Of a stretch of DNA of 64,000 nt, positions 45,806-49,374 are shown one piece after another. Both the position numbers and the translations under genes were made by a program. Origin of the DNA: Candidatus Falkowbacteria bacterium GW2011_GWF2_43_32. GTDB taxonomy: Bacteria; Patescibacteriota; Patescibacteriia; Patescibacteriales; UBA12465. The number at the start of each line of letters is the position of its first letter. The first letter of the stretch is position 1. A model generated the notes under the pieces. That model searched no databases, was not told the origin of the DNA, and saw only the letters and a list, made by a program, of their open reading frames with translations. Where the stretch lies: contig LCGL01000004.1 in NCBI GenBank assembly GCA_000999715.1, positions 44,289 to 108,288 on the forward strand, read 5' to 3'.

Positions 45806-47254
45806 TTAAAATTCTATCGGTTTTGATTCGGCCTCGCTATTGCCGTCGACGCTGGTGTTGCCGCCGCCGGATTTTTTGCTCAAACTTTTGAAATTGACGG
45901 TATTTTCGTCAAAAAATAAATCGATTTTTCCGGTCGGACCGTTGCGATGTTTGGCGATATGGATTTCCGCTTTATGGCGTTCTTCCAGCGGCAAGTCATT
46001 GGGATTATAACCGCGATCGGCCGCTTTGCGGTAAATGAACATTACAATATCAGCGTCTTGTTCAATGGAGCCGGAATCGCGCAAGTGCGACAATTTGGGA
46101 ATCGCCGGATGAGTAAGTTCCACGGCACGGGACAGCTGAGCCAAAGCGAGAATGGGAATATTCAATTCTCGGGCGATGGCTTTCAAGCCGCGGCTGATTT
46201 CGGCAATTTCTTGGACGCGATTGTCGCCATATTTGCCGCGACCCTCCATTAATTGCAGGTAATCGATGACAATCAGGCCCAGGCCTTTTTCCATTTGTAA
46301 ACGTCGGGCTTTGGCGCGGATTTCCATAATGGACAGAACGCCGGAATCGTCAATATAAATCGGCGCTTCGGCCAATTTGCCCATCGCTTCGCCGATGCGG
46401 GCGAAATCGTTATCCTCTTCTTTGTCGGACAAATTGCCGGTGCGCATCTTCCATAAACTGACATTGGCTTGAGCGCAAAGCAGACGATCCACCAGTTGTT
46501 CTTTGCTCATTTCCAAGGAAAAAATGCCGACGCCTTCTTTGCTTTTGATGGCCGCTTGGCGGGCGATGTCCAAAGCCAAAGCGGTTTTACCGACAGACGG
46601 ACGGGCGGCCAAAATTATCAAATCCGATTTTTGCAAACCGGCCAAAAGATTGTCCAAGTCCGGGAAACCGGTGGGCAGTCCCCGCAATTTTCCGCTGTAT
46701 TTATGGAGTTCGTCAATACGATCAAAAGCAGCGGTGAGCAAATTGTCCAAAGGCAGAAAGGCGTTTTTTAAATATTTGCGGGAAACGCCGAATACTTTTT
46801 TTTCGGTTTCATCCAGAATTTCGTCAATATCTCTTTCTTCGTTAAAGCTTAAGCTGGAAATTTCCGCCGCGGTTTGCTGTAAACGGCGCAGAGTCGCCTT
46901 GCGTTGGATGATGCTAGCGTAATTGGCGACATTGCCAGAAGTGGCAACGGTGTTACTGAGTTGGGCAAGATAGGTGCGACCGCCGACAGCGGCTAATTTA
47001 TTTTTTTCTTCCAAGCGGTTAACGATGGTGATAATATCAATCGGTTCTTGATGATTATATAATTCTTTGATGGTTTCGTAGATGATTTTATGGCCGTCTT
47101 TATAAAAATCCTGAGGCATGATGTTGTCGGCCACCTTGATAATCGCGTCTTTATCAATCAAAAGAGAGCCCAAGAGAGATTCTTCGGCTTCCAAACTGTG
47201 CGGCGGCACTTTAGCCATTAAGTCGCTGGTGATGTTTTTGTTATTGTCAGACAT
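45806..47254 (-). CDS. dnaB: Replicative DNA helicase DnaB
   Basis: N-terminal DnaB domain (PPHSLEAEESLLGSLL). Walker A ARPSVGKTALAL. RecA-like C-domain. Confidence 0.9.
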   Translation of the reverse strand: MSDNNKNITSDLMAKVPPHSLEAEESLLGSLLIDKDAIIKVADNIMPQDFYKDGHKIIYETIKELYNHQEPIDIITIVNRLEEKNKLAAVGGRTYLAQLSNTVATSGNVANYASIIQRKATLRRLQQTAAEISSLSFNEERDIDEILDETEKKVFGVSRKYLKNAFLPLDNLLTAAFDRIDELHKYSGKLRGLPTGFPDLDNLLAGLQKSDLIILAARPSVGKTALALDIARQAAIKSKEGVGIFSLEMSKEQLVDRLLCAQANVSLWKMRTGNLSDKEEDNDFARIGEAMGKLAEAPIYIDDSGVLSIMEIRAKARRLQMEKGLGLIVIDYLQLMEGRGKYGDNRVQEIAEISRGLKAIARELNIPILALAQLSRAVELTHPAIPKLSHLRDSGSIEQDADIVMFIYRKAADRGYNPNDLPLEERHKAEIHIAKHRNGPTGKIDLFFDENTVNFKSLSKKSGGGNTSVDGNSEAESKPIEF

Positions 47255-47334
47255 TATTTTCAGCTTAAGGTTTTTTTATTTTAACTCATTTCGGCTGGCT
47301 TTTCAAGCACAGTTTGTACGCAGTTTGTCCCCAA

Positions 47335-47378
47335 TTAAAAAAGCCGCCTGGACGCCGGGGCGATTTGGGCGGTTTTAT
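47335..47378 (-). terminator. GC-rich hairpin + T-tract downstream of the tRNA-Thr gene (minus strand)
   Basis: Minus-strand read CCGCC...GGCGG stem with inner GC pairs, followed by CTTTTTT. Confidence 0.5.
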
Positions 47379-47380
47379 TG

Positions 47381-47453
47381 AGCCATCTGTCGGATTTGAA
47401 CCGACGACCTGCTGTTTACAAGACAGCTGCTCTACCAGCTGAGCTAAGATGGC
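47381..47453 (-). tRNA. tRNA-Thr (anticodon UGU)
   Basis: Hand-folded cloverleaf: 7-bp acceptor GCCATCT/AGATGGC, D-arm GCTC/GAGC, anticodon stem GCTGT/ACAGC with loop CTTGTAA, T-arm GTCGG-TTCAAAT-CCGAC. No encoded CCA. Confidence 0.85.
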
Positions 47454-47485
47454 TTGATATGATTTTAGATAGGTTTATGGCAAGA

Positions 47486-47561
47486 TGGTGCGCCCAGCAG
47501 GATTCGAACCTGCGACCATCTCCTTAAAAGGGAGCTGCTCTACCAACTGAGCTATAGGCGC
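47486..47561 (-). tRNA. tRNA-Lys (anticodon UUU), CCA encoded
   Basis: Hand-folded cloverleaf: acceptor GCGCCTA/TGGGCGC, anticodon loop CTTTTAA, T-arm GCAGG-TTCGAAT-CCTGC, 3' ACCA. Confidence 0.85.
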
Positions 47562-47582
47562 TTGATTGTAAATAAAACGGCT

Positions 47583-47611
47583 TAGATAACAAAAGATTTT
47601 TATTTTGACAA
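47583..47611 (-). promoter_or_regulatory. Candidate promoter for the tRNA-Lys/Thr transcript (minus strand TTGTCA-17-TATCTA)
   Basis: The -10 lies about 21 nt upstream of the mature tRNA-Lys 5' end. Confidence 0.3.
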
Positions 47612-47790
47612 GCGTTGATCTTATCTTTTTATTTATAATTCCATTTTTCGCGATTGGCCGCCGGTTTGCCGGAATTCTCGGAAAAACAATAAATGGGTAG
47701 GTATTTCGGTTAAGATAGCCAAGGTTGATTTTTATATTTATCCGTGTTATTATATTGCCTAAGTTCGTTAAATAAATTAAATGTAAAATC

Positions 47791-48105
47791 ATGAGATCCT
47801 TTGGAAATAAATTCGAACGGTCGGCCACAGACGATAGTGCTTTAGTGGCGATAGCCGAGGACGGCGTTGATATCTTGGCCAAAGATTTGGCGAACAGAAA
47901 TTGGACTAAAATTTGGGATAGCCTGTGCAATTCCGAGTTAAGTAGTCCTCCCATCACCGCCAAGATGTCACCTGAAGCCCAAGAGAAATTTAAAAGTATT
48001 GTTAAGGAAACTAAAGAAGCCTTTGTCGAGGAAAAAGAAAATATGGCTAAATATTTAGTTAATCCTCTCCGACAAGCTTTGGAAAAAATGCTTGAAAAAC
48101 TTTAA
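47791..48105 (+). CDS. Hypothetical protein
   Basis: 104-aa ORF ending 25 nt before a strong terminator. No motif recognised. Confidence 0.4.
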   Translation: MRSFGNKFERSATDDSALVAIAEDGVDILAKDLANRNWTKIWDSLCNSELSSPPITAKMSPEAQEKFKSIVKETKEAFVEEKENMAKYLVNPLRQALEKMLEKL

Positions 48106-48129
48106 ATGACTCCTGGTGCTTGAAAGTTA

Positions 48130-48160
48130 AAGAGTGTGTTGAACCACACTCTTTTTTATT
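48130..48160 (+). terminator. Intrinsic terminator
   Basis: AGAGTGTG-ttgaac-CACACTCT perfect 8-bp stem followed by TTTTTTATTT. Confidence 0.65.
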
Positions 48161-48177
48161 TGTAGTCCCTAGGGGAA
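48151..48177. repeat. Direct repeat copy A: 27 nt identical (1 mismatch) to the tRNA-Glu 3' end plus trailer at 48363-48389
   Basis: TTTTTTATTtGTAGTCCCTAGGGGAAT versus TTTTTTATTaGTAGTCCCTAGGGGAAT. The last 16 nt correspond to the tRNA-Glu acceptor and T-stem 3' strand. Confidence 0.8.
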
Positions 48178-48362
48178 TTCCGCCTCACTCGCGGACCAGT
48201 CCGCTCGTTCGTTGTCGCGGTCAGCGTCCGAAGCTCCCCCGGAGCTTCGTCCGACGCTCGCTACGGTGCCACTCTGCTGAGCGGCCCCTAAGCTCGCTTC
48301 TGACCTGTTTGCTTCCCCTAGTTGCGAATTAATAATAAAAAATATCCAGTATTCACTGGATA
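48178..48362 (+). other. 185-bp GC-rich structured element bracketed by the tRNA-Glu 3'-end direct repeats; candidate integration scar or small ncRNA
   Basis: Markedly GC-rich (about 60%+ by eye) in AT-rich context. Contains long imperfect hairpin AGCGTCCGAAGCTCC-ccc-GGAGCTTCGtccGACGCT. 5' CTAGGGGAA can pair with 3' TTCCCCTAG. Preceded and followed by + strand terminators. Confidence 0.4.
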
Positions 48363-48370
48363 TTTTTTAT
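48342..48370 (+). terminator. Intrinsic terminator
   Basis: ATATCCAGT-attc-ACTGGATAT perfect 9-bp stem followed by TTTTTTAT. Confidence 0.55.
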
Positions 48371-48389
48371 TAGTAGTCCCTAGGGGAAT
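48363..48389. repeat. Direct repeat copy B (tRNA-Glu 3' 16 nt + 11-nt trailer)
   Basis: See copy A at 48151-48177. Confidence 0.8.
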
Positions 48390-48445
48390 CGAACCCCTAT
48401 TACCAGGATGAGAACCTGGCGTCCTAACCGTTAGACGAAGGGACC
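48374..48445 (-). tRNA. tRNA-Glu (anticodon CUC as folded)
   Basis: Hand-folded cloverleaf: acceptor GGTCCCT/AGGGACT, D-arm GTCT/GGAC, anticodon stem CCAGG/CCTGG with loop TTCTCAT, T-arm AGGGG-TTCGATT-CCCCT. No encoded CCA. Confidence 0.8.
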
Positions 48446-48453
48446 AAATATCG

Positions 48454-49374
48454 TTAAATTTTATGTCCATTCAAGAATTCTGTCGCGGTCATGATTTTTT
48501 TGCCGGCCGGTTGCAATTTCAGTATCAATAAAGCGCCTTGTCCGCATTGAATCGCCAGTTTTCCTTCATGGAGAAATAAGGTCCCGATCGGCCAATTGTT
48601 TCCCGATAAAATTTGGGGAGAAACTTCGATTATTTTTAGAATTTTTCCGTTGTTCTCGCCGTAGGTTCCGGGCCAGGGATTGTAAGCACGAATCATCCGT
48701 TCAATTTTTGAAGCCGATTCTTGCCAAACAATTTTCCCGTCTTCTTTTTTCAAAACCTTGATGTAACTGGCTTGAGATTCGTCTTGCGCTTGCGGCACGA
48801 GTTGTCCGTTGATGAAATCACGGAGAGTCGGTGACAGTAATTTTGCGCCGGCCTTGGCTAATTTATCATGAACCGTTTCCAGGGTTTCTTGGCCGTTCAA
48901 TTTTATTTTAGCTTGCCGTAAAATCGGACCGGTGTCAAGCCCGGCGTCCATTTTCATGATGGTCACTCCGGTTTCCGCATCGTTATTCAAAATCGGCGCA
49001 TTTAAACAAGCCGCGCCGCGATATTTGGGAAGCAGGGAGGCATGAACATTGATACAACCGAAAGTCGGTATGTCCAAAATTGCTTGAGGAATAACTTGTC
49101 CGTAAGCGATGACGACGATAATATCCGGTTGCAGATTGTCGATAATTTCCGTGGCGGTTTTAATTTTATCCGGCTGAAAGATTTTTAAATTGTTTTTTAA
49201 AGCCAGTTTTTTGACCGGGGAAGCCGTCAAAACCTGTTTTCGCCCCACCGGTTTATCCGGTTGCGTAAAAACGCCGACGATTTCATAAGTCGGCTCGTTC
49301 AACAAGGCGCTGAAGCCGGGCAAAGAAAATTCCGGCGTACCCATGAAGATCAGTTTATATTTTTTTTCCGACAT
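48454..49374 (-). CDS. fmt: Methionyl-tRNA formyltransferase
   Basis: N-terminal formyltransferase domain (LIFMGTPEFS..., HASLLPKYRGAA). C-terminal Fmt domain. Confidence 0.9.
   Translation of the reverse strand: MSEKKYKLIFMGTPEFSLPGFSALLNEPTYEIVGVFTQPDKPVGRKQVLTASPVKKLALKNNLKIFQPDKIKTATEIIDNLQPDIIVVIAYGQVIPQAILDIPTFGCINVHASLLPKYRGAACLNAPILNNDAETGVTIMKMDAGLDTGPILRQAKIKLNGQETLETVHDKLAKAGAKLLSPTLRDFINGQLVPQAQDESQASYIKVLKKEDGKIVWQESASKIERMIRAYNPWPGTYGENNGKILKIIEVSPQILSGNNWPIGTLFLHEGKLAIQCGQGALLILKLQPAGKKIMTATEFLNGHKI

Follow-up and report, generated by a model that had tools for sequence, protein, structure and literature searches.

Integrative elements that target tRNA genes, namely prophages, genomic islands and cis-mobilizable elements, are flanked by a repeat of the tRNA 3' end, regenerate the tRNA with sequence and a terminator that the element supplies, and can accumulate in tandem at one site. 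A different use of tRNA sequence is made by tRNA-like or tRNA-derived small RNAs, which include the bacterial Y-RNA-like YrlA, the 3'ETS-derived sRNAs and the split tRNA halves of Nanoarchaeum. The Patescibacteria (CPR bacteria) have tiny genomes in which few mobile elements or regulatory RNAs have been recognised. Here we analyse a 64-kb stretch of DNA (64,000 nucleotides; hereafter, the window) from Candidatus Falkowbacteria bacterium GW2011_GWF2_43_32, in which a 211-bp unit adjoins the 3' end of a tRNA-Glu gene. The unit and its relatives are like the tRNA-targeting integrative elements in all three of the above features, and the 17-mer at the end of this tRNA is present in integrase-bearing phages as well. 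The insert in the window is unlike those elements in that it is only 211 bp long, with no integrase in or near it, and in that its cargo is a single structured non-coding module with the att-like fragment built into the fold. The explanation that we consider best, with a probability of about 0.6, is that the unit is a non-autonomous cassette that carries a novel structured sRNA gene and was placed at the tRNA-Glu 3' end by site-specific recombination, with the recombinase provided in trans.

The gene order around the unit is recR, a ybaB-like gene, dnaB, tRNA-Thr and tRNA-Lys (all on the minus strand), ORF104 (plus), the element, tRNA-Glu and fmt (both minus), a VTT-domain gene and def, and there is no mobile-element annotation near the element. 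A preliminary description of this DNA, made from the letters alone, had claimed a 27-bp direct repeat whose second copy is the authentic 3' end of tRNA-Glu with its trailer, a sharply GC-rich insert with end-to-end pairing and a bulged hairpin, two flanking terminators, and an ORF of poor coding potential. These features are borne out by our analysis, the one correction being that the first copy of the repeat is displaced by one base. The repeat finder places the two copies, identical at 26 of the 27 positions, 211 nt apart (Table 1), and the match between them has an E-value of 2e-07 in a BLAST search within the window. Both ARAGORN and Rfam identify the tRNA on the minus strand; the tRNA part of the proximal copy comprises its last 17 nt, from the T-loop AUU through the discriminator/3' end, and the distal copy contains, at 48162-48178, the copied tRNA-Glu 3' fragment, which reads AUUCCCCUAGGGACUAC in the minus-strand sense. 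The insert has the intact tRNA-Glu at one end and a partial tRNA 3'-end repeat on both sides and, in the tRNA sense, the unit consists of a trailer with a hairpin, a spacer, the GC-rich module and the tRNA-Glu 3' fragment. A crossover at any point inside the 27-nt repeat is possible.

Over 48167-48286, the GC fraction of the insert is 0.68, against a window mean of 0.44 (sd 0.07), and the other three highest GC peaks that we inspected lie within coding sequence. Both strands of the insert fold far more stably than shuffled controls, the minus strand with -76.8 kcal/mol (z -4.55) and the plus strand with -70.4 kcal/mol (z -4.18). In this fold, CTAGGGGAA (48170-48178) pairs with TTCCCCTAG (48313-48321), and the central bulged hairpin is also found (H2 in Table 1). 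The flanking hairpin on the ORF104 side scores as a plus-strand terminator; on the minus strand, it lies 3' of the distal tRNA fragment, and its U-tract there is weak or short. The other flanking hairpin, an inverted repeat, is located 3' of tRNA-Glu and yet is part of the inserted unit. A protein-coding insert was considered and rejected: the mechanical ORF across the module has no Pfam match to support it, and the variation is of the kind seen in RNA covariation.

Table 1 Features of the inserted unit and its flanks, in window coordinates
Feature	Position	Strand	Evidence
211-bp inserted unit	48162-48372	-	absent from the syntenic fmt-tRNA-Glu loci of L004, L005 and L007; left 52 nt identical to L111B at 47/52 positions
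tRNA-Glu(CUC), intact, without encoded CCA	48373/4-48445/6	-	ARAGORN; Rfam tRNA, 62.5 bits
Proximal repeat copy TTTTTTATTaGTAGTCCCTAGGGGAAT: 17 nt of tRNA 3' end and 10 nt of trailer	48363-48389	.	repeat finder
Distal repeat copy TTTTTTATTtGTAGTCCCTAGGGGAAT	48152-48178	.	repeat finder, 26/27; sequence
Inverted repeat with 21-nt arms, bidirectional terminator-like hairpin	48330-48375	.	repeat finder, 95% complementary; same hairpin in L111B
AT-rich spacer with conserved motif ATTCGCAA(C)	48322-48337	-	family comparison
P1 5' strand, CUAGGGGAA	48313-48321	-	repeat finder (15 nt, 87% complementary to the tRNA); fold
P2 5' strand, GGUCAG	48300-48305	-	compensatory variants across the family
Hairpin H1, broken by tandem G.A internal loops (GC-GA-GC)	48257-48297	-	fold; helix 3, 5/5 pairs changed on both sides
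Hairpin H2: 2-bp base, GA/GA loop, 9-bp stem	48225-48255	-	repeat finder, fold; helix 4, 98% paired, 5 pairs changed on both sides
P2 3' strand, CUGACC	48219-48224	-	compensatory variants across the family
Hairpin H3, of variable length in the family	48188-48207	-	fold; left out of the covariation test (poor alignment)
P1 3' strand, AUUCCCCUAG, inside the tRNA-Glu fragment	48169-48178	-	MFE fold; helix 1, 85.5% paired across the family
Terminator hairpin of ORF104 (47791-48105)	48129-48154	+	terminator score; repeat finder
Mechanical 70-aa ORF across the module, judged non-coding	48120-48332	+	without Pfam match; RNA-type covariation instead

The tRNA-Glu gene directly follows fmt in eight Patescibacteria genomes or contigs (the named fmt homologues are from Patescibacteria or Falkowbacteria), and neither nhmmer nor the covariance model detects the GC-rich element in any of these eight fmt-tRNA-Glu loci. 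The closest relatives, L004, L005 and L007, are distant (fmt 63-67% identical) and have an identical tRNA-Glu 3' end; L005 also keeps the downstream tRNA-Lys and tRNA-Thr. Given that the distal trailer in the window (AAATAAAAAAG followed by the hairpin) resembles the native tRNA trailer of L004, and that the proximal trailer and hairpin recur elsewhere as the unit's own part, the arrangement in the window looks like a 211-bp insertion. The small non-autonomous insertion that had been proposed agrees with this polymorphism, the unit being missing from the syntenic site in L004, L005 and L007. Within the window's own species, the distance between ORF104 and fmt is 348 nt in all three other contigs checked (L001/L130, L132 and L133, from three samples), among which we saw no empty allele and no circular junction; with this constant spacing, the unit looks fixed in the species. 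Across the clade, the whole interval from tRNA-Lys to tRNA-Glu-fmt varies in gene content (L136, L138 and L139). The idea that the element is multicopy in the manner of a MITE did not hold up in the 64-kb window, where BLAST, nhmmer and the covariance model find no second copy of the insert. The element further differs from a MITE in that its only inverted repeat is P1, with one arm inside the tRNA fragment, and in that the flanking repeat is tRNA sequence and not a short target-site duplication.

A metagenome scan with the 20-mer that spans the junction between module and tRNA (GGAATTCCCCTAGGGACTAC) matched 17 contigs from several JGI metagenomes; nhmmer and a covariance model of our own gave at least 15 different full-length copies as well as fragments. 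These GC-rich elements of about 150 nt are an uncatalogued family: for the window copy and nine other loci, no match to Rfam 15 other than tRNA was obtained (cmscan, 4227 families, including a permissive E-value mode), and full-text literature searches found no published account of such an element. An unrelated LOOT RNA was matched by Rfam in one of the contigs, L115.

The cores of the copies have a median identity of 48% (42-55% to the window copy), and, despite this low identity, the fold is constant, with the closing helix P1, then P2 around H1 and H2, and then the variable H3. In P1, CUAGGGGAAU is paired with the 3' strand supplied by the tRNA fragment. Most members of the family have CUAGGGGAAUCGAAC as the 5' strand of P1, and this strand, taken with the six bases UCGAAC directly after it, repeats the T-loop and T-stem of the tRNA in inverted orientation. 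P2 occurs as GGUCAG/CUGACC, GGGCGG/CCGCCC, GACGG/CCGUC, GGGUUG/CAACCC, GGUUGG/CCAACC and GGGCAG/CUGCCC, and a tandem G.A loop lies near the base of each arm. RNAalifold detects double changes in 15 of 24 pairs. In a covariation test on a specified structure of 27 pairs, with slid partners and 500 shuffles as controls, 89% of the cells are paired, compared with 31-45% when partners are slid, and 13 of the 27 pairs (44 cells) have changed on both sides, a number that does not exceed 5 pairs (7 cells) with slid partners. The covariation score is 0.356, whereas the shuffles give 0.158 (0/500 reach the observed value) and the slid partners 0.06-0.08; the covariance-model alignment agrees with this result. 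P1 is without covariation because its 3' strand was fixed by the search: the tRNA fragment was required in the database search, so that its invariance across the family is by construction. On this structural model, the members of the family are probably small RNAs.

It is scarcely credible that the module is a known RNA, be it 6S, SRP, a tmRNA fragment, YrlA, or an omega or bridge RNA. A size of ~160-200 nt and a closed, helix-rich look would suit an RNA of this kind, and a TnpB element is present at the same site in L126, but the module is unlike the TnpB 3' region of that locus and cmscan gives only tRNA matches at the ten loci, the best non-tRNA matches having E-values of 0.017 or worse and falling on the AT hairpin. 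The 6S-like, SRP or tmRNA identity that the preliminary description had put forward for checking with Infernal drew nothing from Rfam, and ARAGORN reports no tmRNA in the window.

Several indirect features of the family bear on which strand would encode the RNA, and we favour, at about two in three, the minus-strand reading, that is, an RNA in the tRNA sense. The minus-strand fold is the more stable one in 12 of the 13 members; there are 42 symmetric GA/GA tandem loops on the minus strand, approximately three per copy, which are UC/UC on the other strand; and the unpaired segments on the minus strand are purine-rich. In the minus sense, a hairpin with a T-run follows 3' of the tRNA fragment in most members, and, in the main subfamily, to which the window copy belongs, the AT-rich spacer has a -10-like hexamer (TATTAT in the window) 5-10 nt upstream of P1, which is weak as promoter evidence and is absent in some subfamilies. 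The wobble count leans slightly the other way, to the plus strand, with 16 A.C against 6 G.U overall, mostly in P1; this count was taken on the covariance-model alignment, the MAFFT alignment having given several artefactual A.C cells. That the insert is an independently folded small RNA gene, as had been proposed, is most likely, with the minus strand likelier than the plus strand that was considered at the time.

That the fold instead operates at the DNA level, as a single-stranded site like attC or the CTX attP in which P1 would recreate the double-stranded T-arm target, or that the RNA is transcribed from the plus strand, seems to us clearly unlikely. Only on the plus strand are the changes from G to A in the 5' strand of P1 compatible with G.T or G.U pairing, the plus-strand fold has the strongly negative z-score given above, and two plus-strand terminators flank the element; likewise, P1 duplicates both strands of the target, and the units lie between cassettes in arrays without a linked recombinase. 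The tandem GA/GA loops and purine-rich unpaired segments are, however, minus-strand features, and a plus-strand RNA would have no room for a promoter between the ORF104 terminator and the element. Furthermore, gene cassettes occur at the same sites without the module, which makes the module look like cargo and not like a recombination site.

These cassettes come into view when the boundaries of the units are compared. The left neighbour of the unit is tRNA-Glu(CUC) in the window and L109/L120, tRNA-Glu(UUC) in L107 and L117, the 3' end of another tRNA in L113, and a conserved 75-nt element in L108, L111, L115, L118, L119 and L122; with all these types of left neighbour, the join is always immediately 3' of ...GACTAC. 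The trailer, hairpin and spacer, that is, the left 52 nt of the unit, are nearly the same in the window and in L111B (47/52 identical), where the left neighbour is the 75-nt element as opposed to tRNA-Glu and the core is only 46% identical; another identical left part is common to L107, where it comes after a tRNA, and L119, where it comes after the 75-nt element. The occurrence of the same left part behind different neighbours indicates that the hairpin is part of the unit and not of the tRNA gene. The 75-nt element itself corresponds to a small ORF of ~30 aa on the opposite strand (consensus MSFLLVVLKSEISQNFDGIIGEIEKWAEIL; 30 protein clusters, with the third codon position the most variable), and behind it lie a TTGACA-17-TAnnAT promoter and a gene, in that order. 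The possibility that it is a degenerate tRNA was considered and is unconvincing in view of its behaviour as a small ORF.

Units form tandem arrays in L109/L120, L116 and L123, which can mix subfamilies and chimeras, and cassettes with an AbiEii-type nucleotidyltransferase are present in the same arrays. In L124, L125 and L126, single-gene blocks lie downstream of tRNA-Glu, starting right after the ACTAC of the tRNA and ending in the ...GACTAC of the 75-nt element and a new hairpin; these protein-gene cassettes have no folded module, and the 75-nt element in which they end is non-palindromic. L125 has a 17-nt direct repeat, GACTACATAATAAAAAA; in L126, an additional TnpB-AbiE block separates the tRNA from the block that stands directly behind the tRNA in L004. 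The unit in the window is thus one kind of cassette, with an RNA as cargo, at a recombination hot spot. An excised circle was considered for L119, the ends of which overlap by 123 nt so that the contig closes into a cycle of 1105 nt, but an assembly path bounded by repeats would account for this equally well, the overlap ending exactly at the core, as an assembly-graph branch point would.

The repeat could have another origin if the element were a resident, non-mobile ncRNA gene that arose when part of the tRNA-Glu 3' region was duplicated locally, to some extent in inverted orientation, and the T-loop then expanded, so that the repeat would reflect common ancestry and gene conversion. P1 is effectively the T-stem, with the loop replaced by the module, and the mini-units of L112 and L121 are like tRNA-Glu T-arms with a ~30-nt double hairpin in the T-loop, and L121 contains an incomplete copy of tRNA-Glu in which two loops have inserts; the apparent fixation of the unit in the window's species and the lack of a recombinase nearby fit a resident gene as well. 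We nevertheless find this origin doubtful because the unit, including its leading hairpin, stands behind tRNA-Glu with either anticodon (CUC or UUC), behind another tRNA (L113) and behind the 75-nt element, with the junction at ACTAC, and because it is missing from the syntenic loci of relatives and its arrays mix subfamilies. As for the repeat as a recombination footprint, which the preliminary description had seen in it, the att geometry speaks for this interpretation, with the qualification that the tRNA fragment is also intrinsic to the fold, as the 3' strand of P1.

Searches with phmmer, hmmsearch and jackhmmer, with five phage integrases as queries, detected no tyrosine recombinase in the whole window, in ~110 kb of sequence from loci with the module or in the other hot-spot loci described above, and there is none among the Pfam-annotated neighbours of the units. 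A scan of IMG/VR for the tRNA-Glu 17-mer ATTCCCCTAGGGACTAC returned 23 contigs, four of which are phage tRNA arrays, whereas most hold only a tRNA-Glu 3' fragment. In several independent groups, the viral fragment starts exactly at ATTCCCC and, in 5 of the 10 contigs tested, the nearest ORF, within ~170 nt, encodes a Phage_integrase protein: this ORF is adjoined by a partial tRNA-Glu fragment from ATTCCCC in L084, L085 and L086, and by a fragment reaching into the T-stem in L089 and L102. Integrase-carrying phages use the same tRNA-Glu 17-mer as attP, and this use, together with the geometry of the repeat, is in line with the att duplication at a tRNA 3' end that had been suspected here. The GC-rich module was not found in the IMG/VR contigs with the 17-mer, and scans of viral contigs for the module 5' motif and for the 75-nt element gave zero matches.

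The att-like geometry and the targeting of the same 17-mer by integrase phages would also be expected if the unit were a scar without function, all that is left of a prophage or genomic island that decayed after integrating in tRNA-Glu. We consider this very improbable given that the module is not found in viral contigs and, above all, that at least 15 diverged copies keep the fold by compensatory changes, which strongly disfavours a scar; the decayed remnant that was among the initial suggestions for this locus has a core that belongs to a conserved family.

If the unit is one copy of a cassette that recurs in Patescibacteria, its parts in the tRNA direction would be an A-rich trailer with a hairpin, a short AT-rich spacer, the GC-rich module of ~150 nt and a copy of the last 17-20 nt of tRNA-Glu, with a further hairpin behind it. 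Recombination, by an enzyme acting in trans, would have as its two partners the 3' end of the chromosomal tRNA-Glu and the tRNA-Glu-like end of the cassette (...CCCUAGGGACUAC, an attP-like core). Such integration would regenerate an intact tRNA, with the leading hairpin of the cassette becoming the terminator of the tRNA, and would leave the original 3' end and its terminator beyond the far end of the insert. Under this scheme, the empty site would be expected to read ...CACACTCTTTTTTATTTGTAGTCCCTAGGGGAATCGAACCCC, and the junction of a circle or a tandem GAGGCGGAATTCCCCTAGGGACTACTAATAAAAAATATCCAG. The module would be the gene of a small RNA of ~165-200 nt transcribed from the minus strand, and the segment derived from the tRNA would have two roles, being the core for recombination and also a strand of the RNA's closing helix.

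Our best guess on the function of this RNA is that it mimics or binds the end of tRNA-Glu. The conserved, single-stranded UCGAAC is complementary to the T-loop sequence GUUCGA, and the acceptor-like tail is exposed; these features of the predicted fold suggest, speculatively, an interaction with tRNA-Glu or with tRNA-end-handling enzymes. A bolder version, which we regard as rather unlikely, is that one Patescibacteria clade has a hitherto undescribed cassette system without an integrase in cis, in which units with a single gene and units with a structured RNA alike have a tRNA-end-like core (...YYWRRGACTAC) at their boundaries and are shuffled at a hot spot between dnaB and tRNA-Glu-fmt, and that the tRNA-end-mimicking RNA is active in it, either as a guide or scaffold for recombination or as a decoy or antidote against enzymes that act on acceptor ends.

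The locus reveals a widespread, strongly structured and uncatalogued RNA-like family the fold of which includes a copy of a tRNA 3' end, and, in the explanation that we favour, a unit of ~200 bp would travel without a recombinase of its own. If transcribed, the module would represent a new class of tRNA-derived sRNA. If mobilised in trans, the unit would be among the smallest site-specific integrative cassettes known to us and would point to a hot spot of recombination with an influence on which genes, defence genes included, these organisms carry.

The tRNA-like and tRNA-derived sRNAs, for which the comparison made was that with Rfam, are similar to the element in their re-use of the T-arm and acceptor and in their adjacency to tRNA genes, and the element may be co-transcribed with the tRNA. 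It differs from them in having no acceptor 5' strand, D-arm or anticodon arm and no Rfam match to YrlA, and in that its T-loop is replaced by a three-arm structure of ~135 nt. The miniature derivatives of IS200/IS605 elements and the omega RNAs of TnpB have in common with the unit an insertion directly 3' of a short fixed sequence, with the same sequence at the element end, subterminal hairpins, a structured, GC-rich, RNA-like end and the TnpB element at the same site in L126. The window, however, has neither TnpA nor TnpB, and TnpB was seen only in L126, in an unrelated cassette; the hairpins at the two ends of the unit have no sequence relationship to each other; where a variable guide would be, the unit has a constant tRNA-like 3' segment; and there is no Rfam match. 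Compared to integron cassettes and their attC sites, the units differ in that no IntI was found, in that the attachment point is a tRNA 3' end, in that the protein-gene cassettes at this hot spot are without a fold, and in the position of the junction, which is 7 nt outside P1 and not in a stem. They are like integron cassettes in being promoter-poor single-gene units without a recombinase of their own that line up head-to-tail at one attachment point, with folds that are conserved in structure and variable in sequence, and with a short conserved core at each boundary.

The interval between dnaB, tRNA-Thr and tRNA-Lys on one side and tRNA-Glu and fmt on the other is a gene-content hot spot. 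Comparison of this interval in the window with the loci L005, L126, L136, L138 and L139 shows that it holds from one to about 10 unrelated genes, which vary across the members of the clade and include those for GNAT, nucleotidyltransferase, AbiE, TnpB and ArsP. In the window, the AT-rich DNA upstream of ORF104, the plus-strand ORF beside the unit, is interrupted by a short stretch that is GC-rich and hairpin-like (GGCCGCCGGTTTGCCGGAATTCTCGG).

Features discussed in this section and their locations.
Feature	Location	Remarks
Compared interval	window 45806-49374	dnaB to fmt
GC-rich hairpin-like stretch	window 47655-47690	
tRNA-Glu	window 48373-48446	G1.U72 closing pair (Rfam alignment), no encoded CCA
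75-nt element	L108, L111, L115, L118, L119, L122, L124-L129, L135-L139	three copies in L111
Small units	L112:1377-1730	
Small units	L121:8009-8210	
tRNA-Glu 5' part with D-arm hairpin	L003:4700-4797	
Unit after another tRNA	L113:14404-14474	
LOOT RNA (RF03000)	L115:1639-1768	
Contig with terminal overlap	L119:1-1228	

Between the genes downstream of tRNA-Glu, a conserved 75-nt element is repeatedly found. GTAGTC marks its start, and a sigma-70-like promoter comes after it, then a cargo gene. The element matches a small ORF, roughly 30 aa long (MSFLLVVLKSEISQNFDGIIGEIEKWAEIL), that forms 30 protein clusters; its ATG overlaps the upstream stop codon in L136 and L137. The 1228-nt contig L119 has an exact terminal overlap of 123 nt and so closes into a 1105-nt cycle, in which the module is joined by a gene for a class I methyltransferase, by the 75-nt element and by a hairpin. 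Two readings fit this cycle: a circle or tandem, and a repeat-bounded assembly path.

Many phage contigs from IMG/VR (L084-L106) carry only the 3' fragment of the window's tRNA-Glu. The left boundaries of these fragments fall into two classes, located either in the 5' strand of the T-stem or exactly at ATTCCCC, and a tyrosine integrase adjoins the fragment in 5 of the 10 IMG/VR contigs tested.

Several contigs end at or near tRNA-Glu. In two other assemblies of the same species or strain as the window (L002 and L003), the contig stops at or just past this gene, and in a third contig (L131), the end is the hairpin immediately downstream of it, presumably because the tRNA-Glu sequence is common to the module fragment and other tRNA-Glu genes. 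The source strain of L003 has an fmt gene with 98% identity. A 27-nt GC hairpin (CTCGCCTCGCTTCGCGGGCGAAGCGGG) lies within the D-arm of the 5' part of tRNA-Glu in L003; the tRNA sequence then gives way to unrelated, AT-rich DNA where the contig ends. An assembly chimera or a disrupted copy of the tRNA might explain this arrangement.

A second class of units, smaller (68-88 nt) and arranged in tandem, is found in L112 and L121. Each is a tRNA-Glu T-arm with a double hairpin of about 30 nt in the T-loop, after which comes the same acceptor 3' strand, and compensatory changes are seen between units. L121 also contains a partial tRNA-Glu copy whose anticodon loop and T-loop each carry an insert of this kind. 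In L113, a unit is placed after the 3' end of another tRNA (...ATTCCCCGTGGCGGTAC), where the locus is cut off, and keeps its own tRNA-Glu-type fragment. A LOOT RNA was detected in L115 (55.5 bits, against a gathering score of 46.4), about 240 nt away from a module unit.
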